Shown: positions 6,952 through 32,000, counted from the first letter of the stretch. The stretch is DNA of 32,000 bases from Pseudodesulfovibrio mercurii (GCF_000189295.2 NC_016803.1:1620001-1652000), one strand, 5' to 3'. Notes: generated from the letters alone by a model not told the origin. Numbers and translations are program-made.

Positions 6952-7836
6952 ATGGATACCCGACAGATGCGCTATTTCCTGGCTGTGGCCGAGACCCTGC
7001 ACTTCCGCAGGGCGGCCGAGCGGCTGCACATGACCCAGCCGCCCCTGTCGCAGCAGATCGCGGCCTTCGAGGCGGAGCTGGGCGTGGCGCTGTTCGTGCG
7101 CGACCGGCGGTCCGTGGCCCTGACCGAGGCGGGCGCGTGCCTGCTCAAGGACGTGCGCCGCATCCTGGCCGACGTGGACGCGGCCGAGCGGCGGGCCGTG
7201 GACACGGGGTTGGGCCGCGTGGGCAGGCTGCGCGTCGGATTCATCGGCCCGGCCATCGACGGTCCGCTGGGGCCGGACCTGAAGCGGTTCGGCGAGAGCC
7301 ATCCGGGCATCACCCTGGAGCTGACCGAGAAGTCCACGCCCGAGCTGGCCGAGCTGGTGCGCGGCGGCGGGCTGGACGCGGCCGTGGTTCGGCTGTCCGG
7401 GACGGGACGGGACGGGCTCATCCACCGGGTCTACCACCGCGAGACCTACGTCCTGGCCGTGCCCGCCGCCCACCGGCTGGCCAGGGAAACGGCCATCGCG
7501 CCGGCGATGCTCGACGACGAGCCGATGATCATGTTCCCGCGCGCCCTGAACCCGGCCCTGCACGACCGGTGGACCGCGCTCTTCGCCCGGCACGGGGCCC
7601 GGCTGCGCGTGGCCCAGGAGGTCCTGACCAAGCACGCCACCGTGGCCCTGGTGGCCGCCGGGCTGGGCCTGTCGCCCGTGCCCCGGTCCACGGCGGACAC
7701 GGGCCGCCGGGACGTGGCCTTCATCCCCTTCGCCGTGGCCGCGCCGGAGCTGGAGTTCCACCTCATCGCCCGCGACGGTCCGCACGGCCCGGCCCTGGCG
7801 ACCTTCCTCGACCAGCTGGCCCCGGAGCGCCCCTGA
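6952..7836 (+). CDS. LysR-family transcriptional regulator
   Basis: MDTRQMRYFLAVAETLHFRRAAERLHMTQPPLSQQIAAFEAELG is a canonical LysR HTH. 294 aa. Divergent from the CMD gene. Confidence 0.9.
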   Translation: MDTRQMRYFLAVAETLHFRRAAERLHMTQPPLSQQIAAFEAELGVALFVRDRRSVALTEAGACLLKDVRRILADVDAAERRAVDTGLGRVGRLRVGFIGPAIDGPLGPDLKRFGESHPGITLELTEKSTPELAELVRGGGLDAAVVRLSGTGRDGLIHRVYHRETYVLAVPAAHRLARETAIAPAMLDDEPMIMFPRALNPALHDRWTALFARHGARLRVAQEVLTKHATVALVAAGLGLSPVPRSTADTGRRDVAFIPFAVAAPELEFHLIARDGPHGPALATFLDQLAPERP

Positions 7837-7919
7837 CCCGAGCCCCCGGCCGGAAGCCCGCGCCCCCGCGGGCAAGTCCCTCCTTGCGGCCCGGAACCAG
7901 TTGGAGTACCGTGCGCCCC

Positions 7920-9080
7920 ATGACGAAATCGCCCATTACCCGAGACACCCTGCTGGACAACGTCCGGCGGGTGGTGATCAAGGTAGGCTCGGCCGTGCTG
8001 ACCACCCGCGACGGCCTGAACGGCGCGGCCATCAACCGGCTGGCGGACCAGCTGTCGGAACTGTCGAACCGGGGGCTGGACGTGGTCCTGGTCTCCTCGG
8101 GCGCGGTGGCCGCGGGCAGACAGCGCATCTACGAGCGGACCCGGAAGAAGCACCGCAACGGCAAGGACATGGTCTCCCGGCAGGCGGCCTCGGCCGTGGG
8201 CCAGGGACGGCTCATGCACGACTACGACGAGGCCTTTGCCCGGCACGGCAAGGTCACGGCCCAGGTCCTGCTGACCCGCAGCGGGCTGAAGCTGCGCGAC
8301 CGCTTCCTGAACGCGCGCAACACCTTGGAACGGCTCCTGGAATGGGGCGTCATCCCGATCATCAACGAGAACGACACCGTGTCCACCCGCGAACTGGAGT
8401 TCGGGGACAACGACACCCTGGCCGCCATGTGCCTGGGGCTGGTCGGCGCGGATCTGTTCGTGAACATGACCTCGGCCGACGGGGTCTTCGACCGGAACCC
8501 GGACGGCGATCCGGAGGCCAGGCCCATCCCGCTCATTGAGGACATCGCGGCCCTGGACCTCGAGGCCATGTGCGACGGCAAGAGCAGCGTGGGCACAGGC
8601 GGCATGTACTCCAAGCTGCGCGCGGCCCGGCGGGCGGCCCAGCTGGGCGTGCCCACCCTGATCGTCACGGGCAAGGGCGCCTTCGACATCCCGGCCGTGC
8701 TCGCCGGAGACCAGGGCGGCACCCTGGTCCTGCCCGACGAGCGCGTGGTCTCGAGCAAAAAATTCTGGCTGGCCTACCACGACGACCCGTCCGGGGCCGT
8801 CCTGGTGGACGGCGGCGCGGCCAACGCCCTGCTGACCAAGGGCACGTCGCTGCTGCCCATCGGCATCACCGGGGTGGAGGGCTGCTTCGAACGCGGGGCG
8901 CTGATCTTCATCAAGACGGCGGACGGCGTGGAACTCGGCGTGGGCCAGACCAACTATTCCGCCGACGAACTCTGCCGCATCAAGGGCAAGCGCACGGACG
9001 AACTGGCGGCCATCATCGGGCCCACGGTCTCGGACGAGGCCGTACACCGCGACAACATGCTCCTGGACGCGGCCATCTGA
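7920..9080 (+). CDS. proB: Glutamate 5-kinase (with C-terminal PUA domain)
   Basis: RVVIKVGSAVLT, VLVSSGAVAAG, IINENDTVST.ELEFGDNDTLAA, TGGMYSKL; C-terminal PUA-like GALIFIKTADGVELGVGQTNYSADE. 386 aa. Confidence 0.95.
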   Translation: MTKSPITRDTLLDNVRRVVIKVGSAVLTTRDGLNGAAINRLADQLSELSNRGLDVVLVSSGAVAAGRQRIYERTRKKHRNGKDMVSRQAASAVGQGRLMHDYDEAFARHGKVTAQVLLTRSGLKLRDRFLNARNTLERLLEWGVIPIINENDTVSTRELEFGDNDTLAAMCLGLVGADLFVNMTSADGVFDRNPDGDPEARPIPLIEDIAALDLEAMCDGKSSVGTGGMYSKLRAARRAAQLGVPTLIVTGKGAFDIPAVLAGDQGGTLVLPDERVVSSKKFWLAYHDDPSGAVLVDGGAANALLTKGTSLLPIGITGVEGCFERGALIFIKTADGVELGVGQTNYSADELCRIKGKRTDELAAIIGPTVSDEAVHRDNMLLDAAI

Positions 9081-10288: not shown

Positions 10289-10431
10289 CGTCCCTCCGTT
10301 CCCGCCTGCAACACAGGCTCAACCCCCTGCACGTCTACTGCAGGCTTCGCTCGCTGGGTCTGGCCCATCGGCCCGCCCTGATGGTCTCCAGCTGCTGGGA
10401 ACGCGTCCTGTATCGGCGCATCCTGTCCTGA
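10285..10431 (+). CDS. Possible 48-aa small protein, translationally coupled to the MFS gene
   Basis: ATGA overlap with the MFS stop. Basic, Cys-containing peptide MTSLRSRLQHRLNPLHVYCRL.... No recognisable homology. Confidence 0.3.
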   Translation: MTSLRSRLQHRLNPLHVYCRLRSLGLAHRPALMVSSCWERVLYRRILS

Positions 10432-10439
10432 TCGAAGTC

Positions 10440-10456
10440 CGGGCCCCCCCGGCCCG
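10440..10456. terminator. GC hairpin between convergent genes
   Basis: CGGGCC-CCCCC-GGCCCG directly abutting the PadR stop. No U-tract. Confidence 0.3.
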
Positions 10457-10801
10457 CTACGACTCCCGGTAGCGCCGGATGAACGCGTCCAGCCGGTCGC
10501 GCTGCTTCTCCATGTGCAGAATCCACGCCTCCAGAACCTCCAGGCCCTCGGGCGTGACCGAGTAGACCCGCTTGGCCGGGCCGTCGCCCTCGGCATCCCA
10601 GTTGGAGGTGACCAACCCCTCCTCGTCCATCTGACGCAGATGGCGATAGATCATGCCCGGAGGCGCGTCGTCCCGCAAAAAGCCGTAGTCCCCGATGGAC
10701 TGGATGAGCTGGTATCCGTAGGAAGGCCCGGCCTTGAGGGCCATGAGCAGGGAGGGCTGTACGTACCGCTGCGGCTTGGAGCCGCCCACTTTTTTCGACA
10801 T
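10457..10801 (-). CDS. PadR-family transcriptional regulator
   Basis: MSKKVGGSKPQRYVQPSLLMALKAGPSYGYQLIQ...IYRHLRQMDEEGLV...RVYSVTPEG is a PadR winged helix. The upstream part of the track ORF was rejected as hydrophobic and AT-rich. Confidence 0.85.
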   Translation of the reverse strand: MSKKVGGSKPQRYVQPSLLMALKAGPSYGYQLIQSIGDYGFLRDDAPPGMIYRHLRQMDEEGLVTSNWDAEGDGPAKRVYSVTPEGLEVLEAWILHMEKQRDRLDAFIRRYRES

Positions 10802-10817
10802 GAGTGCAATGTCCTTC

Positions 10818-10847
10818 TTGACTATAGGTGCTTTAAGGATATATATA
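10818..10847 (+). promoter_or_regulatory. Candidate sigma-70 promoter for the small basic protein gene
   Basis: TTGACT (10818-10823), 17-nt spacer, ATATAT/TATATA (10841-10847), in an AT-rich divergent region. Confidence 0.4.
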
Positions 10848-10892
10848 CAGTATAGACCAATGTCCATTAAGGCACAAGCCAAGGAGACAATC

Positions 10893-11105
10893 ATGAAGAT
10901 TTTCGTACGTGAACGCATGCGGGCCGAGGAAGGGACCAGGAAGCCGAGATACCGCGTTGTCGGCATCCAGGGCGGGGATTTGAAGATTTACGCCAAGCGC
11001 ATCCGCCGGTGCGAGCTCAAGGAGCTGGCCGAACAGACGGGTGCCGAGATCGTCTACCTCCCCCGTGACGGCGAAGGGAGTGAGGGGAAGAAGAAGGCCG
11101 CGTAG
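10893..11105 (+). CDS. Small basic hypothetical protein (70 aa), divergent from PadR
   Basis: Strong RBS AAGGAG 6 nt upstream of the ATG. MKIFVRERMRAEEGTRKPRYRVVGIQGGDLKIYAKRIRRCELKELAEQTGAEIVYLPRDGEG.... Coherent codon usage. Confidence 0.6.
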   Translation: MKIFVRERMRAEEGTRKPRYRVVGIQGGDLKIYAKRIRRCELKELAEQTGAEIVYLPRDGEGSEGKKKAA

Positions 11106-11106
11106 C

Positions 11107-11283
11107 GGCTCCCGATAGCGGGCGATCTGCGCATTCTTTCCGGGGGGCTTGCGTCCTCACGTGGTAAGCCACGCTGCGGCGAAAGCCCCCCCGGAAGAAA
11201 ATGCACATCTGACCCACTCTCAAAAGCCTCGTGCGAACGCGGGAGAAGAGCCGCTGCCGGGTGCTGCGCACCCGAATCGCTCC
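11107..11283 (+). repeat. Structured intergenic repeat, copy A
   Basis: Aligns end to end with the reverse complement of 19900-20084. Contains a long imperfect hairpin (11131-11153 / 11180-11204) with an apical CGTGG-TAAG-CCACG hairpin. Confidence 0.85.
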
Positions 11284-11295
11284 AGTTTTTTGAAG

Positions 11296-11335
11296 AAAAA
11301 GGCCTTCGACTCGATACAGAGTCGAAGGCCTTTTT
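11296..11335. terminator. Bidirectional rho-independent terminator
   Basis: AAAAA-GGCCTTCGACTC-GATACA-GAGTCGAAGGCC-TTTTT: perfect 12-bp stem flanked by A and T tracts. Sits between convergent transcription units. Confidence 0.8.
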
Positions 11336-11396
11336 GTGCTCTTTGGCCCGCGAAGCGGCAATAAAAAGTATAGGAAAGGAGAGGGGATGGGGGCCC

Positions 11397-11451
11397 GGGG
11401 GAAGGGGAGAGGGAAAGCCCTTTACAAAGGGTTTCCCTCTCCCCTTCCCCC
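11397..11451. repeat. Long polypurine/polypyrimidine hairpin
   Basis: GGGGGAAGGGGAGAGGGAAAGCCCTTT-ACA-AAAGGGTTTCCCTCTCCCCTTCCCCC: a stem of about 26 bp with one bulge. Lies 22 nt downstream of the MoSto-like gene stop. Confidence 0.7.
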
Positions 11452-11472
11452 GGCCGCCGGAGGCATTCCTTG

Positions 11473-12324
11473 CTAATCCTTGTAGATGATCGTGCCGACG
11501 TGTTCGCCGTCCAGGGCGGCGTGGAGGTGTTCGGGGTGGCGGAGGACATCGATGATCTGGAAGGACTTGAGGGTCTTGGCGTTCTTGAGGAAGGTCAGGA
11601 CCGGACGTTCGACGATGAGGTCGTCGAGGTCGAGCTTGATCAGTTCGTCCACGTGGATCTTGTCGTAGAACTTGAGGGCGTCGCGGTTCTTGGCCTTCTT
11701 GGGGTCGCCGTCGAACATGCCCTTTTCGTCCTTGAGGTAGATAAGCGAGCGCGCGCCGATGTTTTCGGCCAGGAGGAAGGCCCCGGAATCGGTGCGGTGG
11801 GGCGGGATGGAGCCGTGTTCGGCCGGGTGCTCGAAGAAGCCGTAGGGCGGGATGCCGGTGGTGATGGGCAGGTAGCCGAGCTGGCAGTACATGTGCAGCT
11901 GCTCCAGGTGGTCGCCGTGGCCGATGAGGGCGCCGCCGTGCTTGGCCAGGAGGACCGAGAGCATCTCGGCGTTCTGGGCCGAGACCTTGTCGCCGAGCTT
12001 GGACAGGACGCCGGTGGGCATGCCCAGGTCCACACCGATGGAGTAGACGTGGCGGGCCCGGGTGCCGCCGCCGCACATGAGCAGAATCTTGTGCTTTTCC
12101 TTGGCCTTGACCAGTTCCTTGAGGATGGGGAACAGGGCCTTGGCCCCGCGGTCCATGATGGACTGGCCGCCGATCTTGAGCACGTTGACGTCCGGCTGCA
12201 TGCGGAAGTACTCGCTCGCCTCGGTGCCCTTGAGCACGTTGCGGTCCACCAGGGACTCGCCCATGAGCGGGGTGTCGATATGCAGTCTGCCCTTGGCGTC
12301 CTTTTCCTTGATCAGCTTGCCCAT
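11473..12324 (-). CDS. Amino-acid-kinase-fold protein resembling molybdenum storage protein (MosA/MosB-like)
   Basis: 283 aa with VLKIGGQSIMDRG, LMCGGGTRARHVYSIGVDLG, PPHRTDSGAFLLAE and C-terminal GEHVGTIIY. This pattern is recalled from A. vinelandii MoSto subunits. Distinct from the true argB and proB genes in this window. Confidence 0.8.
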   Translation of the reverse strand: MGKLIKEKDAKGRLHIDTPLMGESLVDRNVLKGTEASEYFRMQPDVNVLKIGGQSIMDRGAKALFPILKELVKAKEKHKILLMCGGGTRARHVYSIGVDLGMPTGVLSKLGDKVSAQNAEMLSVLLAKHGGALIGHGDHLEQLHMYCQLGYLPITTGIPPYGFFEHPAEHGSIPPHRTDSGAFLLAENIGARSLIYLKDEKGMFDGDPKKAKNRDALKFYDKIHVDELIKLDLDDLIVERPVLTFLKNAKTLKSFQIIDVLRHPEHLHAALDGEHVGTIIYKD

Positions 12325-12361
12325 GCGGGTGTCCTCCAGGTGTGTTTATGAATTGTCATAC

Positions 12362-12389
12362 ATTGTACCTGCCGGTGGAAAAATGGCAA
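12362..12389 (-). promoter_or_regulatory. Candidate sigma-70 promoter for the MoSto-like gene
   Basis: On the minus strand: TTGCCA (12389-12384), 16-nt spacer, TACAAT (12367-12362). GGAGGA RBS before the ATG at 12324. Confidence 0.45.
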
Positions 12390-12423
12390 GCCGCTTGGAA
12401 TCGCGCCAGGTTGAGCATCATGC

Positions 12424-13617
12424 CTAGATGGAGATCCGCCCCTTGTTGATGATCCAGGTCATGCAGATGCCCACGCCGAAGGCCCAGGCCAGATTGGAGG
12501 CCATGGTGATGCCGAGCATGACCATCATGACGAACAGGCCCGAGCGGGTCTGCACGTCCTGGATGGTCAGGGCGAGTTGCGCCCCGGCGTAGAACAGGAG
12601 CATGCCGAGCACGCCCATGGGCAGGAGGTGCAGGACATTGATGGACTGGGAACCCAGGAGCACGGCCAGGGCCACGAAGAGCAGGCCGATGATCACGTTG
12701 GAGCCCGCGGTGCGCGCCCCGAAGGCGTAGTGCGCGGCCAGGCCGCCCGCGCCGTGGCACACGGGCATGCCGCCCACCAGGGCGGCGAAGACGTTGGCCA
12801 GCCCCATGGAGATGCACAGGGCGCGGTCCGTGACCCTCCGGCTGTCGTTGCCGAAGTATTCGAAGCTCAGGTCCCGGCTGGCGATGACCGCGTTGCCCAT
12901 GGTCATGGGAATCTGCGGGGCCACCAGGGCGACCAGGGCGAAGCCGAAGTCCGCCATGGTCGGGATGCCGAAGGGCAGGATCTCGGGCATGTGCAGCCCC
13001 ACGCGGATGTCCACCAGCTCGCGCCAGGCCCCGAACAGGGTGCCGAAGACCGCGCCCGCCACGACCACCACCAGCCCGGCCGGAAAGCGGTTGCTGCGCA
13101 GGAGCAGCAGGGCGATCAGGCCGAAGAGCACGCCGGACAGCACGGACATGGACACCGGGCCCAGGGACTGGACAAGCAGAAACGGCTCGCACATCCCATT
13201 CATGAGCTGAAGCGGGTTCTTGCCCACGATGAGGTGGACGCCCTTGGACAGAAGCAGGATGCCGGTGGACAGCTGCACGCCCCGGATGACCGGCCGGGGC
13301 ACCAGGCGGGCCACGCGGTCCACCAGGCCGGTGGTCCCGAGGAACAGGAGCATCACGGCCAGGAGGATGCCCGAAGCGGTGATCATCTGGGGCGAGAGTG
13401 CCAGGCCGATGGCGTAGGCCGAGACGACCTTCATGGGCTGGACCGCGATGGGCACCCGGTAGTAGAATCCGGCCAGGAGATACATGAGCCCCACGGTCAG
13501 GAAGAGCCCGGTGGCCGACAGGCCGTTGATCATGATCATGCCGAAAGACAGCGGCAGCAGCGTGCCCAGGTCGCCCATGGAGCCCGCCCATTCCATCCGA
13601 TTGAAACTCAGTCGCAT
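12424..13617 (-). CDS. MOT1-family (sulfate-permease-like) putative molybdate transporter
   Basis: 397-aa polytopic membrane protein. Both recalled MOT1 signature motifs are present: YRVPIAVQPMKVVSAYAIG and GGMPVCHGAGGLAAHYAFGARTAG. Confidence 0.8.
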   Translation of the reverse strand: MRLSFNRMEWAGSMGDLGTLLPLSFGMIMINGLSATGLFLTVGLMYLLAGFYYRVPIAVQPMKVVSAYAIGLALSPQMITASGILLAVMLLFLGTTGLVDRVARLVPRPVIRGVQLSTGILLLSKGVHLIVGKNPLQLMNGMCEPFLLVQSLGPVSMSVLSGVLFGLIALLLLRSNRFPAGLVVVVAGAVFGTLFGAWRELVDIRVGLHMPEILPFGIPTMADFGFALVALVAPQIPMTMGNAVIASRDLSFEYFGNDSRRVTDRALCISMGLANVFAALVGGMPVCHGAGGLAAHYAFGARTAGSNVIIGLLFVALAVLLGSQSINVLHLLPMGVLGMLLFYAGAQLALTIQDVQTRSGLFVMMVMLGITMASNLAWAFGVGICMTWIINKGRISI

Positions 13618-13863
13618 ACGGCTATCCCCTGGTTAATTTCCTAGCACTTTAGGAGGATTTAACAAACTCGGTACAATGGATGCAACCGCAATCTGTTGAC
13701 TTCCCGCGATCTTTTTCACCATATTTTTCTATGGATGTCATGCAATCCGCCGATACCATCACCCGAAACCGCGTTGCGCGGACATTGACAGGGCGTGAAC
13801 CCTGCACATATCATCAAATATTGGTTGCCGCTTTTCCCCGACACGCAGCCCGAAAACACGACC

Positions 13864-16500
13864 ATGAGACACCCCTCGACCCCACTCCGCCCCGCATGGT
13901 GCCTGTGCGCCGCCCTCCTCTGGCTGGCCATCGGCCCCGCCGCCACGCCCGCCGTTGCCGCGCCCGTGCACTTCACCGTCCTGCTGGCCCCGTTCGAGAC
14001 CCCGGATACCGCCGGGAAGGCGCACCGGGCCGCGCTCAAGGCGCTCCTGACGGCCAACGGGTTCCGCGTAGTGGAGCCGCCGGAACTGCTGAACGGCCCC
14101 GGGCGGTACGCGGGCGTCTCCAAGTGGCTGGAGCCCGCCTGGCGCGACGGCTGGCTCGCCCGGACCCAGGCGGAATACGTCCTGTTCGGCCGGGAGGACG
14201 GCGACCTTTTGGTCCTGGGCATCTACCCCGGCTACGACTACGACGACTCGCCCAACGAGCTGACGGCCTACCGCCCCGGTGATCCGGCCGAGATGGACCG
14301 GCTGGCCCGCGACATCGGCCGGGCCGTGATCAACGCGGCCCGCGACTTCGTGGACGACGAGGACATGGACAACCGGGCCTACCGGCTCTCCCGCCACGCG
14401 GACAGGCTCAAGACGGCCCTCGGGCTCAAGGACAGCCCGTTCTTCCGCTCCCCCGGCAACACCTACGCCCTGCGCCTGGCCGTGGTGGAGACCCTCATGG
14501 AGCTGGACTGGGAGGTGGAGGACCGCTTCGTGCTCGAGGAGGTCATGACCCGGCTCGCGCCCCTGCTGGCCTCGGAAAAGGACAACCCCGACACGCGCGG
14601 CTACGTCTGGTCCCTGTCCATCCTCCTGAACACCCGCCTGGGCGACCGCTACGACGACCCCGCCGCCCTGCTGCGGGCCGTGGCCGACTGCGACGCCGTG
14701 CTCGCGTTCCCCGAGACCGGGGAGGACGCGGAGACCGCGTCGTGGACCTATGCCCAGAAGGGGGAAAACCTGCGGCGGCTGGCGCAACTGCGCGATGACA
14801 ACGGACTGTACCGGAGATCCAGCGACGACTTCATGCGGGCCCTGGACCTGCTGCCCAAGGGCCCGAACCGGCAACGGGGCGACATGCACTCCGACCTCGG
14901 CCTCAACGGCATGGACATGGCCCGCGCCACCGGGGACCCCAGGCTCTTCAAGGACGCCATCGGGCACTTCGACCGGGCGATCGAAAATTTCGACAGGCGG
15001 GAATACCCCTGGAGCTGGGGCATGGCCCAGGTCAACCGGGCCTGCGCCCTGATCGGCCTGGCCGACATCGAGGACCAGGTGGACAACCGGCGGCGGGCCA
15101 ACAAGAACCTGCGGCTGGCCCTGGAAGCCTTCACCCTGCGGGATTATCCGAGCCGATGGCTGGCCACCGAGGTCGCCCTGGGGCGCAGCCTGGTCAGCCT
15201 CGGCGACGAGACCGGAACGCCCGAGCCGTACCAGGAGGCCGCCGCCCTGCTCGACAAGGCCGTGCCCAGAGCGGAGGCGGAGGGCCTGGACTGGTCCGAG
15301 ATGTCCTTCTGGCTGGGGCTGGCCCACGAGCAGCTGGGCGAGACCGGGGACGACGCCGTACAGTTCGAGACCGCCGCGACCTGGTACGACAAGACCCTCG
15401 GCAAGCTGCCAGACGACGACCTGGACCTGAGGCCCTATACCTACAAGCGGCTCGGGTACGTGCTCGCGCAACTCGGCGAGCGCGAAAGCCTGCCGGAATA
15501 TTACGACAGGAGCGGGCAGGATTACGCCGTGGCGGCGGCCCTGTTCGCGCGGTCGGGCGACGAGGAGGAATGCGCCCTGGCCCGATTCCAGGAGGGGCGC
15601 AGCTATCTTTCCCTCACGGCGAGAACGCCCCAGGTCGAATCGCTGGACAAGGCGCTGTCCGCCTTCACCAAGGCCCTGGACCACTTCCGGGGTCACGACG
15701 AACGCCTGGCGACGGCCCGGTGCAACATCTACATCGCCCGGTGCCTCCTCCACCTCGGAGACCGGCTGGCCGAGGCCGACCACTACGTCAAGGCCCTGGC
15801 GCGCCTGGACGAGGCGCAGAAAGACCTTGCCGACAAGGCCCACCCCGCCGACTGGCTCAACACCGTGGCCGTGAAGGGGATGGCCTACGCCAGGCTGGCC
15901 GACCACTACAGGAGCATCGACGACTACGACAAGGCCATCGGGGCGTATTCCACCGTGCTGACGGCGATCCGGCTCGAAGACAACCCGGAACTGTGGGTGG
16001 ACACCCAAAGCGACCTGGGCATGACCCTCAAGCGCAAGGCCGCGCAGCTCGACGACGTCTCCATGGCCGAAGAGGCCGGGACCCACTTCCAGGCCGCACT
16101 CGACCATCTCAACCGCGAGCAGGACCCGGCACGGTGGGCGCGCGTCAGCAACAACTACGCGAATCTCCTGTGCTTCCAGGGCAGACTGACGCGGAAGACC
16201 GGCAGCCTTGAACAGGGCATCGCCACCTACCGCGCCGTGCAGGCGGTCTGGACCAGGGAGCGATACCCCCTGCAATGGGCCATGACCCTCTACAACATCG
16301 GCAACGCCCAGCTGTCCATCGCCTCCATGGGCGGGGACGGCAAGACGGCGGAGACCGCCCTGTCCCTGCTGCTGCAGGCCAGGGACAACCTCGGCGACCA
16401 GTCCCCCGGCTTCCGGGACGACATCGACGACAGCATCCGCACGGCCCGGAACCTGATCCGGCGGCTCCAGCGGAAGACCCCGGCCCGGTCCACCACCTAG
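13864..16500 (+). CDS. Secreted tetratricopeptide-repeat protein (878 aa)
   Basis: Start chosen at MRHPSTPLRPAWCLCAALLWLAIGPAATPAVAAP (signal peptide). At least six degenerate repeats have a [D/E/Y]P..W motif followed by a helix (REYPWSWGMAQVN, RDYPSRWLATEV, AHPADWLNTV, DNPELWVDTQ, QDPARWARVS, RYPLQWAMTLYNIGNA). Confidence 0.85.
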   Translation: MRHPSTPLRPAWCLCAALLWLAIGPAATPAVAAPVHFTVLLAPFETPDTAGKAHRAALKALLTANGFRVVEPPELLNGPGRYAGVSKWLEPAWRDGWLARTQAEYVLFGREDGDLLVLGIYPGYDYDDSPNELTAYRPGDPAEMDRLARDIGRAVINAARDFVDDEDMDNRAYRLSRHADRLKTALGLKDSPFFRSPGNTYALRLAVVETLMELDWEVEDRFVLEEVMTRLAPLLASEKDNPDTRGYVWSLSILLNTRLGDRYDDPAALLRAVADCDAVLAFPETGEDAETASWTYAQKGENLRRLAQLRDDNGLYRRSSDDFMRALDLLPKGPNRQRGDMHSDLGLNGMDMARATGDPRLFKDAIGHFDRAIENFDRREYPWSWGMAQVNRACALIGLADIEDQVDNRRRANKNLRLALEAFTLRDYPSRWLATEVALGRSLVSLGDETGTPEPYQEAAALLDKAVPRAEAEGLDWSEMSFWLGLAHEQLGETGDDAVQFETAATWYDKTLGKLPDDDLDLRPYTYKRLGYVLAQLGERESLPEYYDRSGQDYAVAAALFARSGDEEECALARFQEGRSYLSLTARTPQVESLDKALSAFTKALDHFRGHDERLATARCNIYIARCLLHLGDRLAEADHYVKALARLDEAQKDLADKAHPADWLNTVAVKGMAYARLADHYRSIDDYDKAIGAYSTVLTAIRLEDNPELWVDTQSDLGMTLKRKAAQLDDVSMAEEAGTHFQAALDHLNREQDPARWARVSNNYANLLCFQGRLTRKTGSLEQGIATYRAVQAVWTRERYPLQWAMTLYNIGNAQLSIASMGGDGKTAETALSLLLQARDNLGDQSPGFRDDIDDSIRTARNLIRRLQRKTPARSTT

Positions 16501-17523
<1,023 letters not shown>

Positions 17524-17527
17524 GCCC

Positions 17528-18778
17528 ATGCACGGATTCTTCACCATCATCTCCCGCGCCGAGTTCGAGGCCCTGCTGCGAGGCTTCGCCCCCCTGGACG
17601 CCGAGACCGTGGACCTGGCCGAATCGGCCGGGCGCGTCCTGGCCCACGACCTGATCGCCCCCCACGACTGGCCCCTGCTGGCCCGGTCGTGCATGGACGG
17701 CTTCGCGGTCAACGCCCGCGACGTATTCGGGGCCGGCGAGTCCAATCCCGGCTACCTGGAATGCGTGGCCGCCCTGTCCATCGACAAGTTGCCGGACATC
17801 GTCCTCAACCCCGGCGAGTGCGCGCGCATCGCCACGGGCGGGGTGCTGCCCGAGGGCGCGGACGCCGTGGTCATGGTCGAGCACACCCAGGCCATGCAGG
17901 ACGAGATCGTGGGCGGGACCATCGAGATCCGCAAAAGCGCGGCCCCGTTCGACAACGTCATGCAGCGCGGCGAGGACGCCAGAAAGGACGCCACCGCCCT
18001 GCCCGCGGGCACGGTCCTGCGGCCCCAGGAGATCGGCCTGGCCGCTGCCCTGGGCTTCGAGGAAATTTCACTGGTCAGACGGCCCAGGGTGGGCATCCTG
18101 TCAACGGGCGACGAGCTCATCGAGGTCGGCGCCACGCCCAGGCCCGGCCAGGTGCGCGACGTGAACACCCACACCGTGGCCGCCCTGGTGGAACAGGCGG
18201 GCGGCCTGCCCGTGCCCTACGGGATCATCAAGGACGACCTGGAGAGCCTCGGCCGAGCCCTGGCCACGGCCATCGCCGAGAACGACGCGGTCCTGTTGTC
18301 CGGGGGCAGCTCCATCGGCGTGCGCGACCTCACGGTCCAAGCCATCGAGGCCATGGAGGACGCGAAAATTCTGGCCCACGGGGTGGCCATCAGCCCCGGC
18401 AAGCCGACCATCCTCGGCCGCGTGGGCAAGAAGCCCGTGCTCGGCCTGCCCGGCCAGGTGACCTCGGCCCTGGTGGTGGTCCACGTCCTGGTCCTACCGC
18501 TCCTGCGCCATCTCCAGGGCGATCCGGCCGCGTTCTCCCCGACCTGCCGCTGCCTGCGCAAGGCGCAGCTGGCCCGCAACGTGGCCTCAAAGCCGGGTCG
18601 CGAGGACTACGTGCGCATCCGGCTGGAGGAACGCCCCGGCCAACCGCCCCTGGCCCACCCGGTGCTCGGCAAGTCCGGGCTGCTGCGGACCATTGTCCAG
18701 GCCCATGGGCTGGCCACCATCCCGGCCGATTCCGAGGGGCTCTACGCCGACGCGTTGGTTGATATCTGGATCGTTTAA
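17528..18778 (+). CDS. moeA: Molybdopterin molybdenumtransferase MoeA
   Basis: 416 aa with SCMDGFAV, ARIATGGVLPEGADAVVMVE, ILSTGDEL, NTHTVAALV and LLSGGSSIG, typical of MoeA. Confidence 0.92.
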   Translation: MHGFFTIISRAEFEALLRGFAPLDAETVDLAESAGRVLAHDLIAPHDWPLLARSCMDGFAVNARDVFGAGESNPGYLECVAALSIDKLPDIVLNPGECARIATGGVLPEGADAVVMVEHTQAMQDEIVGGTIEIRKSAAPFDNVMQRGEDARKDATALPAGTVLRPQEIGLAAALGFEEISLVRRPRVGILSTGDELIEVGATPRPGQVRDVNTHTVAALVEQAGGLPVPYGIIKDDLESLGRALATAIAENDAVLLSGGSSIGVRDLTVQAIEAMEDAKILAHGVAISPGKPTILGRVGKKPVLGLPGQVTSALVVVHVLVLPLLRHLQGDPAAFSPTCRCLRKAQLARNVASKPGREDYVRIRLEERPGQPPLAHPVLGKSGLLRTIVQAHGLATIPADSEGLYADALVDIWIV

Positions 18779-18802: not shown

Positions 18803-19753
18803 TTAAAAATCCTCTTCCTGGCCGTCGAGTTCCAGAATCTTCCAGCCCTCGTTGCCCTTCATGAGCACGAAGACCGAGTCGTCCTCGAGGTTTTTGTCCA
18901 GCTTGCCCACCTGCACGCGGTAGGTCCCGAAGGCGCGGACCTCGGCCACGTCCTTGTCCAGGTAGACCAGCTCGAAGCCGAGGCCGGAGGGGTCCACCCT
19001 GGCCGAGCGCAGGAGCTTGAAGGTGCCGCGCTGGCGCTGGATCTCCTTGAAGACCTCGAACTGGAAGTCGAAGCGGTCGCGCACGTGGGACGCGAAGAGC
19101 AGGTAGTAGTCGTCGTCCAGGGAGGTCTGTTTGACGTAGAAGTCCCGGAGCAGGGTCTTGATCTCGTCGGGCACGGCATTGGTCGTGTCGGCGGGCGGCG
19201 CCTGGGGCACGAATTTCCCGCCCCGAGCGGTCCCGTCGTCCGGCGCGGGCATGAGGGTCAGGTACAGCTTGACCTCGGACACGGCCAGCTTCATGCGCGC
19301 CAGGGGCACGCCCTCGGGAAAGACCGAGTCCACCACGATGCGGATGGACTTGAACGGCTTGCCCGGACATTTCACGACCTGCTCGCCCGGCTCGTCGCGC
19401 AGCCAAAAGGGGAACTCCGAGCCGTCGGGATAGACCACCCGGCCCGAGCGGATGCGCCGGAACTTCTCGAACTGCCCCGGCCCCTGGTGCCCGTTGTAGA
19501 TGCCGAGCCCCGTGACCCGCACGGGCACGTCGAAGGCGAACTCCATCCACTGCCCTTCGCCCGAGGAGATGCTCCCCCCGGCCCAGGCCGTGGCCGGGTC
19601 CCCGTCCATGAGGTTCCCCGGCGCGTACTCGAGCCCCAAGTCCACCTTGAAGCTGGACACCCGGACGTCCACATTCAACGCCCAAGCCGCCCCGCCCCAC
19701 AACAGGACGCCCGACACCATCAGCCCCAAGGCCACCAGACGAACATTTCGCAT
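18803..19753 (-). CDS. Secreted two-domain protein: discoidin/galactose-binding-like N-domain plus NTF2-like C-domain
   Basis: Start chosen at MRNVRLVALGLMVSGVLLWGGAAWA (signal peptide). NLMDGDPATAWAGG...GEGQWMEFAF...VTGLGIYNG is an F5/8-type-C-like pattern. The C-terminal ~130 aa look NTF2/SnoaL-like; this is a weak call. Confidence 0.8.
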   Translation of the reverse strand: MRNVRLVALGLMVSGVLLWGGAAWALNVDVRVSSFKVDLGLEYAPGNLMDGDPATAWAGGSISSGEGQWMEFAFDVPVRVTGLGIYNGHQGPGQFEKFRRIRSGRVVYPDGSEFPFWLRDEPGEQVVKCPGKPFKSIRIVVDSVFPEGVPLARMKLAVSEVKLYLTLMPAPDDGTARGGKFVPQAPPADTTNAVPDEIKTLLRDFYVKQTSLDDDYYLLFASHVRDRFDFQFEVFKEIQRQRGTFKLLRSARVDPSGLGFELVYLDKDVAEVRAFGTYRVQVGKLDKNLEDDSVFVLMKGNEGWKILELDGQEEDF

Positions 19754-19880
19754 GACGCCCTCTCTACCACAACACGTCGGAATCCGTCCCGTATAAAAAG
19801 CGCTCCCCACGGCGCCGCCCCCCACCGGGGCGGCTCGGTCGGCGCAGCCCGACCGACAGCCCCTCCCCCGTGGCGATTCG

Positions 19881-19891
19881 CCCCCCCCCCC
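19881..19891. repeat. Homopolymeric C11 (G11 on the minus strand) tract
   Basis: Direct reading: CG-CCCCCCCCCCC-T-CCCCC. Lies about 130 nt upstream of the discoidin-like gene start, at the edge of repeat copy B. Confidence 0.9.
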
Positions 19892-19899
19892 TCCCCCTT

Positions 19900-20084
19900 G
19901 GAGCGATTCGGTCGGCGCAGCCGCCCGACAGCGGCTCTCCCCCACGCGCCCGCACGCAGTCAGGCTTTCGAGAGTGGGTCAGCTGTGCATTTTCTTCCGG
20001 GGGGCTTTCACCGCAGCGTAGCCGTCTACGTGAGGATGAAAGCCCCCCCGGAAAAAATGTGCAGATGGCCCGCTATCGGAAGCC
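19900..20084 (-). repeat. Structured intergenic repeat, copy B (inverted relative to copy A)
   Basis: The reverse complement aligns with 11107-11283 (same termini GGCT[C/T]CCGATAGCGGG ... CGAATCGCTCC). The apical hairpin here is CGTAG-ACGG-CTACG. Confidence 0.85.
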
Positions 20085-20088
20085 GCAC

Positions 20089-31940: not shown

Positions 31941-32000
31941 TGGGCTGTCGTTCAATTGGCAGGACGACGGATTCTGGCTCCGTTAATCAAGGTTCGAGTC
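31941..32000 (+). tRNA. tRNA-Gln (anticodon CUG), 3' end truncated by the window
   Basis: Manual fold: acceptor UGGGCUG, D-stem GUUC/GGAC, anticodon stem ACGGA/UCCGU with loop UUCUGGC, T-arm CAAGG-UUCGAGU. Resembles E. coli tRNA-Gln as recalled. Confidence 0.85.

Follow-up and report, generated by a model that had tools for sequence, protein, structure and literature searches.

This study concerns a 32,000-nucleotide stretch of Pseudodesulfovibrio mercurii DNA (GCF_000189295.2 NC_016803.1:1620001-1652000), referred to here as the window, and in particular a gene on its minus strand at 11473-12324, which we call the mos-like gene. By full-length homology its 283-aa product is assigned to the molybdenum storage protein (MoSto) family, in a clade of single-copy genes found mainly in Desulfobacterota, and is neither ArgB, ProB nor PyrH. 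The gene has no local paralogue in nearly all of its relatives and recurs beside importers of molybdenum (Mo) or tungsten (W). We consider that the protein would act as a homo-oligomeric, ATP-dependent store or buffer of Mo or W oxyanions, a reading to which we give a probability of roughly 0.55, and we regard the finding as a real and interesting lead drawn from comparative genomics. The host is a Pseudodesulfovibrio-like member of the Desulfovibrionaceae, an anaerobic sulfate reducer, and the loci closest to the window come from P. karagichevae 9FUS, at 96% amino-acid identity, and from 'Desulfovibrio caledoniensis' lm2024, at 95%. The comparison was based on 103 loci with 68-96% identity. 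Besides the window these comprised 23 loci from genomes, duplicates excluded, and 79 from metagenomes, and the flanking sequence examined on each side was about 10 kb in the genome loci and 8 kb in the metagenome loci.

Results

The mos-like gene encodes a protein of the MoSto family

A phmmer search against PDB sequences gave the beta subunit of MoSto, MosB, as the top match of the 283-aa protein (225.6 bits, E 7.9e-66), with 44.8% identity over 261 aa. The alpha subunit, MosA, scored 169.6 bits (E 9e-49), compared with 36.7 bits (E 3e-8) for the best UMP kinase. Because this ranking favours MoSto so widely, the protein is placed in the MoSto family and not among the UMP kinases. Pfam returned the generic AA_kinase family and nothing else (72 bits), both PyrH equivalog models of NCBIfam remained below their cutoffs (TIGR02076, 58.7 against 158 bits; TIGR02075, 24.8 against 243.9 bits), and the ArgB and aspartate-kinase equivalogs scored far under theirs. 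These results bear out the initial annotation of this DNA, which had described a protein of the amino-acid-kinase fold that resembles MosA and MosB and had set it apart from ArgB and ProB, both encoded elsewhere in the window. Indeed, ArgB is found at 16549-17523 (TIGR00761, 270 bits) and ProB within the open reading frame (ORF) at 7137-9080, which carries AA_kinase and PUA domains. The sequence motifs that had been quoted as a MoSto pattern can all be read in the 283-aa translation, where they appear as LKIGGQSIMDRG, CGGGTRARHVYSIGVDLG, IPPHRTDSGAFLLAE and DGEHVGT.

The protein forms a clade separate from MosA and MosB

The MoSto family is far larger than published work would suggest, with 854 clusters when sequences are grouped at 50% identity (E <1e-3) and upwards of 7,600 at 90% identity (E <1e-10). 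In a neighbour-joining tree of full-length family representatives together with MosA and MosB, a check of the kind that the initial annotation had proposed, the window protein and its homologues form one clade with 100% bootstrap support, distinct from both the MosA clade and the MosB clade, and this clade joins the sister representatives P0122 and P0123 with 92% support. Its members come from Pseudodesulfovibrio, Maridesulfovibrio, Solidesulfovibrio, Desulfobacter, Desulfobacterales and Syntrophobacteraceae, and complete genomes with the gene include CP195092.1, AP026709.1, NZ_CP182342.1 and CP054837.1. The deep nodes of the tree, on which the order of the clades relative to the alpha/beta duplication would depend, have bootstrap values below 50%.

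Conservation across the family, which is the sole basis of our comparison of catalytic-site residues, reveals a protein that has kept every strongly conserved position of the family. An alignment of 28 members has 45 columns with a conservation of 85% or more, and the window protein retains all 45, compared with 42 in MosB and 40 in MosA, and the motifs so retained include KIGG, DRG, GGGTRARH, PPY, RTDxG, KDxxG..DP and VGT. Its KIGGQSxxDRG segment is beta-like, as alpha has a one-residue deletion there, and the N-terminal arm (RLHIDTPLMGESLV) is almost invariant in the window clade.

Two further observations concern the family at large. In the alignment of representatives, the Lys of the KxGG motif is lost in clades P0126, P0131, P0157, P0158, P0176 and P0180, and these losses, together with a tandem gene pair in at least one such clade (locus L028, clade P0126), suggest that pairs of catalytic and non-catalytic subunits arose more than once. 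Another representative, P0143, is a 732-aa fusion protein with its MoSto-like domain at residues 463-730.

The mos-like gene occurs as a single gene at its locus

The initial annotation had stressed that the window holds one storage-like gene where two would be expected, and the survey extends this to the clade. No second MoSto-like sequence was detected by tblastn in the whole 32-kb window, no paralogue was present within 10 kb in the 24 genome-derived loci, and none was present within 8 kb in 77 of the 79 metagenome loci, so that the gene is without a local paralogue in 101/103 loci overall. The two exceptions, L062 and L065, carry a recent duplication inside the same clade, in which both copies are 76% identical to the window protein; judged from these sequences, it is not a pair of the alpha/beta type. 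Paired genes are clearly detectable by this method, because both the positive control L025, a MosA representative with the MosB gene 13 nt upstream, and the tandem pair of L028 were recovered.

Mo/W transport genes recur around the mos-like gene

Upstream of the mos-like gene on the same strand lies a gene for a 397-aa protein (12424-13617, minus strand) predicted to be a MOT1-type molybdate carrier. Its sole Pfam match is MFS_MOT1 (PF16983; 170.5 bits against a cutoff of 30), in two stretches that fall in both halves of the protein, so that it has no STAS domain; it matched no NCBIfam model and had no relative among PDB sequences. The translation contains the signature motifs PIAVQPMK and MPVCHGAGGLAAHYAFGARTAG, and thus the earlier description of a carrier with both MOT1 signatures holds, with nothing to place the protein among SulP carriers devoid of them. 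PF16983 genes of bacterial origin were already described from sulfate reducers (PMC5840216) and from a molybdenum cofactor (Moco) locus of Caldithrix (PMC5317091), and MOT1 has been treated as exclusively eukaryotic in comparative surveys (PMC6147048, PMC13144720). We found no experimentally characterised bacterial MOT1 in the literature that we searched.

All ORFs around the module were clustered in an unbiased way, with no prior assumptions about their functions. MOT1 homologues are found near the mos-like gene in 23 of the 103 loci and TupA or TupB in 16, an ABC ATPase family recurs around the module, and a molybdopterin aldehyde oxidoreductase (803 bits) recurs in seven loci. For the TupB-type permease the best NCBIfam match is TupB (290 bits against a cutoff of 320), and for the TupA-type binding protein TupA is the only one (255 bits). 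In some related loci the tungstate importer TupABC takes a position equivalent to that of MOT1. When the count is confined to the 35 loci whose sequence reaches 4 kb or more upstream and 5 kb or more downstream, MOT1 is present in 12, Tup in seven, and either of them in 18 (51%). Since Mo/W transporter loci are few in any typical genome, a rate of about 50% within some 12 kb would seem far above chance. Furthermore, MOT1 occurs in at least three arrangements, namely directly upstream on the same strand at a distance of 59-130 nt, upstream in divergent orientation, and downstream of padR, and its homologues at these loci share 31-92% identity with the window carrier, which together indicate repeated association instead of one inherited arrangement. 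The mos-like gene is therefore linked to Mo/W by its recurrent position beside Mo/W importers. The pairing with MOT1 noted in the initial annotation is real and reaches well beyond this locus, but it is facultative, as TupABC substitutes for MOT1 in some loci and many have neither.

The same cannot be said of moeA, which had been offered as part of the context of the module on account of its distance of about 4 kb. The gene is there (17528-18778, 3.9 kb from the mos-like gene), but its adjacency is confined to one Pseudodesulfovibrio lineage, which also has MOT1, and argB intervenes; for these reasons we read the proximity as synteny only and reject moeA as a member of the module.

A small ORF and padR are near-constant neighbours of the mos-like gene

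The genes that accompany the mos-like gene almost without exception are not those of MOT1 but a small ORF and a padR gene, both overlooked in the initial annotation. The small ORF (10893-11105, plus strand) encodes a basic protein of 70 aa and is oriented toward the mos-like gene, in a convergent pair, and away from padR, in a divergent one. It is present in 22/22 genome loci and in 58/59 metagenome loci with enough downstream sequence, and its length of 70 aa is also predicted by gene callers. All 48 homologues of the protein are labelled 'hypothetical', no Pfam or NCBIfam model matched it even at E 10, and its AlphaFold2 model (pLDDT 76) gave no fold match in the PDB. A candidate identity as a Mop/TOBE molbindin was rejected on the grounds of these null results.

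The padR gene (10457-10801, minus strand) encodes a 114-aa PadR-family regulator with a winged-helix domain (PF03551, 56 bits against a cutoff of 27). Its true start is MSKKVGG and not that of a longer ORF of 169 aa, and the length of 114 aa is also called in other assemblies. Like the small ORF, it is found in all 22 genome loci and in 58 of the 59 metagenome loci with enough flanking sequence. The divergent region between the two genes contains a palindromic candidate operator (10818-10846) with the consensus ATATATCCT-N4-AGGATATAT-GTCAA, which is kept in every locus examined and is the top match to its position weight matrix (PWM) in each. Such a palindrome at the padR promoter would fit an operator through which PadR regulates itself. 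In L022, a Solidesulfovibrio locus, a palindrome ATATGCTC-TTT-GAGCATAT, roughly 73 nt ahead of the mos-like gene, resembles the padR operator of that locus, and L022 is the only locus with a PadR-type site before the mos-like gene.

A third gene, encoding a TiaS-like protein of about 250 aa, follows in 17 genome loci and in 25 of the 38 metagenome loci that extend 2 kb or more downstream, with L021:7534-8304(-) as an example; it is absent from the window and from L001, L002 and L004. In its AlphaFold model (pLDDT 87), the first 157 residues or so correspond to the TCKD ATP-binding domain of TiaS (Foldseek E 3e-9, root-mean-square deviation 2.2 A). Weak NCBIfam matches agree with the TiaS fold, and the GxDDTD motif is present. 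This family has more than 3,000 members, labelled as hypothetical, 'TiaS' or DUF1743. In sister clades, the TiaS-like gene, a small ORF and the mos-like gene follow one another in the same direction in L027, and in L026 the TiaS-like gene ends 16 nt upstream of the mos-like gene. The shared direction of these partners and the mos-like gene in the sister clades argues for a functional unit.

Promoters and leaders of the mos-like and MOT1 genes

The 99-nt spacer between the mos-like and MOT1 genes (12325-12423) contains the sigma-70-type promoter that had been pointed out before, TTGCCA-16-TACAAT, at 12389-12362 on the minus strand (10/12 match), and a GGAGG ribosome-binding site precedes the ATG of the mos-like gene by 8 nt. 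The spacer region has four promoter-like sites, against 0.6 expected from shuffled sequences. The promoter is kept in seven loci (the window, L001, L002, L003, L004, L005 and L018), irrespective of the presence of an upstream MOT1 gene, and this conservation suggests that the mos-like gene has a promoter of its own. No terminator-like site was found in the spacer, so that read-through from MOT1 is also possible.

The MOT1 gene is preceded by a leader (13615-13703, minus strand) that is conserved in the window, L001 and L002 while the flanks diverge. It includes a small hairpin and the sequence TTGCAT-17-TTAAAT (13657-13685), which we infer to be the candidate MOT1 promoter and which would give a 5' untranslated region of about 45 nt. 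No Rfam family, the Moco riboswitch included, was found for this locus in the MOT1 leader, in 10300-14000 or in the whole window. The divergent leader as a whole (13618-13863) is AT-richer, as had been stated (49% GC against 66% for the window), and the inverted repeat CCATA-N6-TATGG described in it is present at 13719-13734. The proposal that this repeat is an operator was rejected, since 5-bp inverted repeats with 3-10 nt spacers occur in the leader at chance frequency (4 observed, 1.6 expected; P about 0.11) and this one is conserved in neither of the closest relatives, L001 and L002. A 33-nt direct repeat (76% identical) with GTTGACTTCCCGC occurs in the MOT1 leader at 13682-13714 and again just upstream of argB at 16535-16567; it may be due to chance or may be a shared regulatory box.

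Other features of the window

Two hairpins lie downstream of the mos-like gene. One, between the 70-aa ORF and the mos-like gene, is a bidirectional terminator-like structure (11296-11335) with a 17-bp stem and flanking A/T runs. The other, directly past the mos-like stop codon (11390-11458), is long, with 33-nt arms that are 88% complementary; Rfam miRNA-like matches on it were dismissed as spurious. In addition, a self-complementary repeat of about 125 bp occurs twice in the window in inverted orientation (11105-11229 and 19962-20086), with 43-nt arms that are 91-95% complementary between the copies; the second copy folds on itself at 19963-20084 with 59-nt arms. The repeat looks like an element of the repetitive extragenic palindrome or miniature inverted-repeat transposable element type. 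Its first copy, directly after the 70-aa ORF, partly explains why the gap between this ORF and the mos-like gene is 368 nt in the window, compared with about 70-100 nt in related loci.

Between MOT1 and argB, the ORF at 13795-16500 (likely true start 13864) encodes a 901-aa TPR-repeat protein with an N-terminus that resembles a signal peptide, and a strong promoter-like site, TTGACA-18-TATCAT (11/12), is located at 13785-13814. In L001 and L002 argB lies about 270 nt from MOT1, and for this reason the TPR gene appears to be a lineage-specific insertion. Adjoining moeA is a gene for a 380-aa protein (18803-19945, minus strand) with a NADase_transloc / F5_F8 type C domain (Pfam, 35.7 bits), apparently unrelated to the module. 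A partial tRNA gene (31941-32000, plus strand; Rfam tRNA, 31.7 bits) is cut off by the end of the window.

Discussion

The results presented in this study are best accommodated if the mos-like protein is a homo-oligomeric store or buffer of Mo or W oxyanions. Such a protein would form a hexamer from one type of subunit. Since UMP kinases assemble as homohexamers and MoSto, in its canonical form, as an (alpha-beta)3 hexamer, a homohexamer is the simplest expectation. ATP would be bound at the beta-like site and would drive the intake of molybdate and/or tungstate, and the oxyanion would be held inside the protein. The supply line would be the adjacent MOT1 carrier in P. mercurii and TupABC in related genomes. 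Such a store would both buffer the free oxyanion and hold metal in reserve for the anaerobe's Mo and W enzymes. Transcription of the mos-like gene would start from its own conserved promoter, possibly with read-through from the carrier gene, and the 70-aa protein, PadR and the TiaS-like protein would probably be accessory or regulatory parts of the same system. It has been reported that the MoSto of Azotobacter vinelandii stores both Mo and W and that its loading is ATP-dependent (PMC6448029). It has also been recognized that molybdate is highly toxic to sulfate reducers, in which it causes futile cycling in sulfate activation (PMC10102598), and for this reason a buffering role that keeps free molybdate low may be expected.

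Several observations weigh against this reading. In our alignment, with verified numbering, the window protein and its whole clade have Gly in place of alpha Glu129, Tyr in place of alpha His140, which we take to be the residue of the His triad on the threefold axis, and Gly in place of alpha His156. The equivalent of beta Met149, which is said to be the 'gate' of a proposed piercing mechanism, is Ile across the window clade, and the Met is kept in the sister representatives P0122-P0124. About half of the 35 well-flanked loci have no Mo/W transporter nearby, and all of the tallies given above count loci, not independent evolutionary events. No connection with Mo or W is known for the most constant partners, namely the 70-aa protein, PadR and the TiaS-like protein. 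With the operator PWM, no second site was found upstream of the mos-like gene or MOT1, bar the weak site of L022, and because the matches are otherwise confined to the promoter region of padR and the small ORF, control of the mos-like gene or MOT1 by PadR is not supported as a general rule.

With respect to the missing residues, alpha Glu129 and His156 of A. vinelandii MoSto bind a Mo8 cluster covalently and a His triad is located on the threefold axis (PMC4504029). Because these alpha-type anchoring ligands are missing from the window clade, the cluster chemistry of A. vinelandii is not simply transferable to it and may differ there. Instead, a GHGDH segment (residues 135-139) is conserved in the clade where alpha has its Glu129 pocket, and an RHPEH insertion (about 262-266) takes the place of NGLxPG; we speculate that these could supply alternative ligands.

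The same losses are the starting point for the most serious competing explanation, which we consider rather unlikely, that the protein is a Mo/W kinase or chaperone that would activate, select or hand over the oxyanion to MoeA or another partner with no bulk storage, the 70-aa protein and the TiaS-like enzyme acting in the same relay. Besides the absent cluster-anchoring ligands, such a relay would account for the beta-like character of the protein, as beta is reportedly the catalytic 'molybdate kinase' subunit, for a second ATP-binding fold, the TCKD domain, among the constant partners, for the importers that adjoin the gene, and for moeA in this lineage. However, the majority of clusters in the MoSto of A. 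vinelandii have no covalent attachment and are kept in place by hydrogen bonds and van der Waals contacts (PMC4504029), so that the loss of three ligands is compatible with storage; the linkage to moeA is a matter of one lineage; and a comparable relay is not known for Mo or W. It is less probable still that the clade has left metal handling altogether and is a kinase-fold enzyme for some other substrate, such as the 70-aa protein or a metabolite made with the TiaS-like enzyme, with the nearby Mo/W transporters being coincidental or indirectly related. The invariant partners without Mo/W annotation, their co-directional arrangement with the gene in the sister clade (L027), the half of the well-flanked loci that have no transporter and the loss of the alpha-type ligands would all fit this explanation. 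Against it, three unrelated kinds of gene, those of MOT1, TupABC and a molybdo-enzyme, recur in many arrangements, which is unlikely to be due to chance, the closest characterised relatives are by a wide margin the two MoSto subunits, and all family-conserved residues are kept.

Two further alternatives concern the identity of the subunit itself. The protein could be one subunit of a conventional heteromeric MoSto whose partner paralogue is encoded elsewhere in the genome. This would be compatible with a survey that covered only about 10 kb on each side of each locus, a limit that also bears on the homo-oligomeric reading, and with the tandem pairs of other clades (L028). We find it quite improbable, as the paired forms that have been characterised or sampled are all adjacent (L025, L028), a local partner is absent from 101/103 loci, the window clade itself appears to keep catalytic-type features, and UMP kinases, the nearest outgroup enzymes, are established homohexamers. 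The remaining alternative, that the protein is a divergent UMP kinase (PyrH), is suggested by the name 'uridine kinase' that NCBI gives to the relatives, and it could draw on the weak matches to the archaeal PyrH model and to UMP kinase structures. These scores are dwarfed by the PyrH cutoffs and by the matches to both MoSto subunits, and the N-terminal arm and the C-terminal GEHVGT are typical of MoSto. On this sequence evidence the alternative is very improbable indeed and effectively refuted, and 'uridine kinase' is to all appearance a misnomer.

Returning to the homo-oligomeric store, we may also ask whether all of the conserved parts belong to one system. It is a tentative possibility, doubtful as a whole, that the mos-like protein, the 70-aa protein, PadR and the TiaS-like protein together make up an unrecognised Mo/W homeostasis system of anaerobic Desulfobacterota. 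In such a system a homohexameric, all-catalytic cage of the MoSto type would sequester molybdate and/or tungstate, and would thereby shield sulfate activation from molybdate poisoning and provision W and Mo enzymes. The 70-aa and TiaS-like proteins might act in loading or release, PadR might be a new kind of Mo/W-responsive regulator, and the importers, MOT1 or TupABC, would be interchangeable.

MoSto has hitherto been regarded as a rare protein, found in a small number of nitrogen-fixing aerobes. It was said to have 'no known homologs' in a 2019 study (PMC6448029), and MosAB were among the rarest Mo genes in a 2026 survey (PMC13144720). In our literature search we found no description of MoSto homologues in sulfate reducers, of a single-gene form or of the present module. 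The homology itself is already recognised by automated annotation, as JGI labels many of the relatives 'molybdenum storage protein'. Our data point to a large family, with a single-gene clade that is common in sediment sulfate reducers and tied to Mo/W importers. If these proteins store or buffer Mo or W, they would offer a simpler, one-subunit model of how a kinase fold became an oxyanion pump and would explain how the many Mo and W enzymes are supplied in organisms to which molybdate is toxic. The toolkit of Mo/W homeostasis would then gain bacterial MOT1 carriers as well as a PadR regulator, and a widespread 'uridine kinase' annotation would be corrected.

Comparison with known systems

Among the accompanying proteins, the window carrier shares with the eukaryotic MOT1 proteins (Arabidopsis MOT1, Chlamydomonas MOT1 and Neurospora MOT-1) the MFS_MOT1 family in both halves, the signature motifs and the absence of a STAS domain; it differs in being bacterial, and its transport of molybdate is predicted from sequence. 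The TiaS-like partner resembles TiaS (tRNA-Ile2 agmatidine synthetase) and methanogenesis marker protein 11 in its N-terminal TCKD fold and GxDDTD motif, but it is bacterial, lacks the tRNA-binding domains and has a different C-terminal beta domain. The molbindins or TOBE stores (Mop, Tub), which are alternative known cytoplasmic holders of molybdate and tungstate in anaerobes, are alike to the 70-aa partner in their size of about 70 aa; they differ in that they bind single oxyanions without ATP, and the partner has no TOBE or fold match.

The closest known system to the mos-like protein is clearly the MoSto of A. vinelandii (MosA/MosB; PDB 2OGX, 4F6T and 6GU5), which belongs to the same full-length family with the amino-acid-kinase fold and whose conserved motifs, N-terminal arm and C-terminal GEHVGT are kept in the window protein; the association of the window clade with Mo/W uptake genes likewise fits a role in handling oxyanions. 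The window protein nevertheless departs, on its sequence and gene order, from three features of the characterised complex, namely the paired genes, the alpha-subunit ligands and Met149. It is encoded by a single gene where A. vinelandii has an adjacent alpha/beta pair, and it comes from a clade that is neither alpha nor beta, without the Glu129/His140/His156 and Met149 equivalents and with GHGDH and RHPEH segments of its own. The host is an anaerobic sulfate reducer here and an aerobic diazotroph there, the importer is MOT1 or TupABC here and ModABC there, and the 70-aa, PadR and TiaS-like partners are not known in the Azotobacter system. UMP kinase (PyrH) shares the fold superfamily and is the nearest relative outside MoSto, but it differs in that the region of its UMP-site motif is replaced by PPY...PPHRTDSG in the window protein, which falls below the cutoffs of the PyrH models, and in that pyrH usually has housekeeping neighbours, whereas the mos-like gene lies in a Mo/W transport context. 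The homohexamer of PyrH is likely to represent the ancestral state, and it provides a model for how a MoSto-type protein could be assembled from one subunit.

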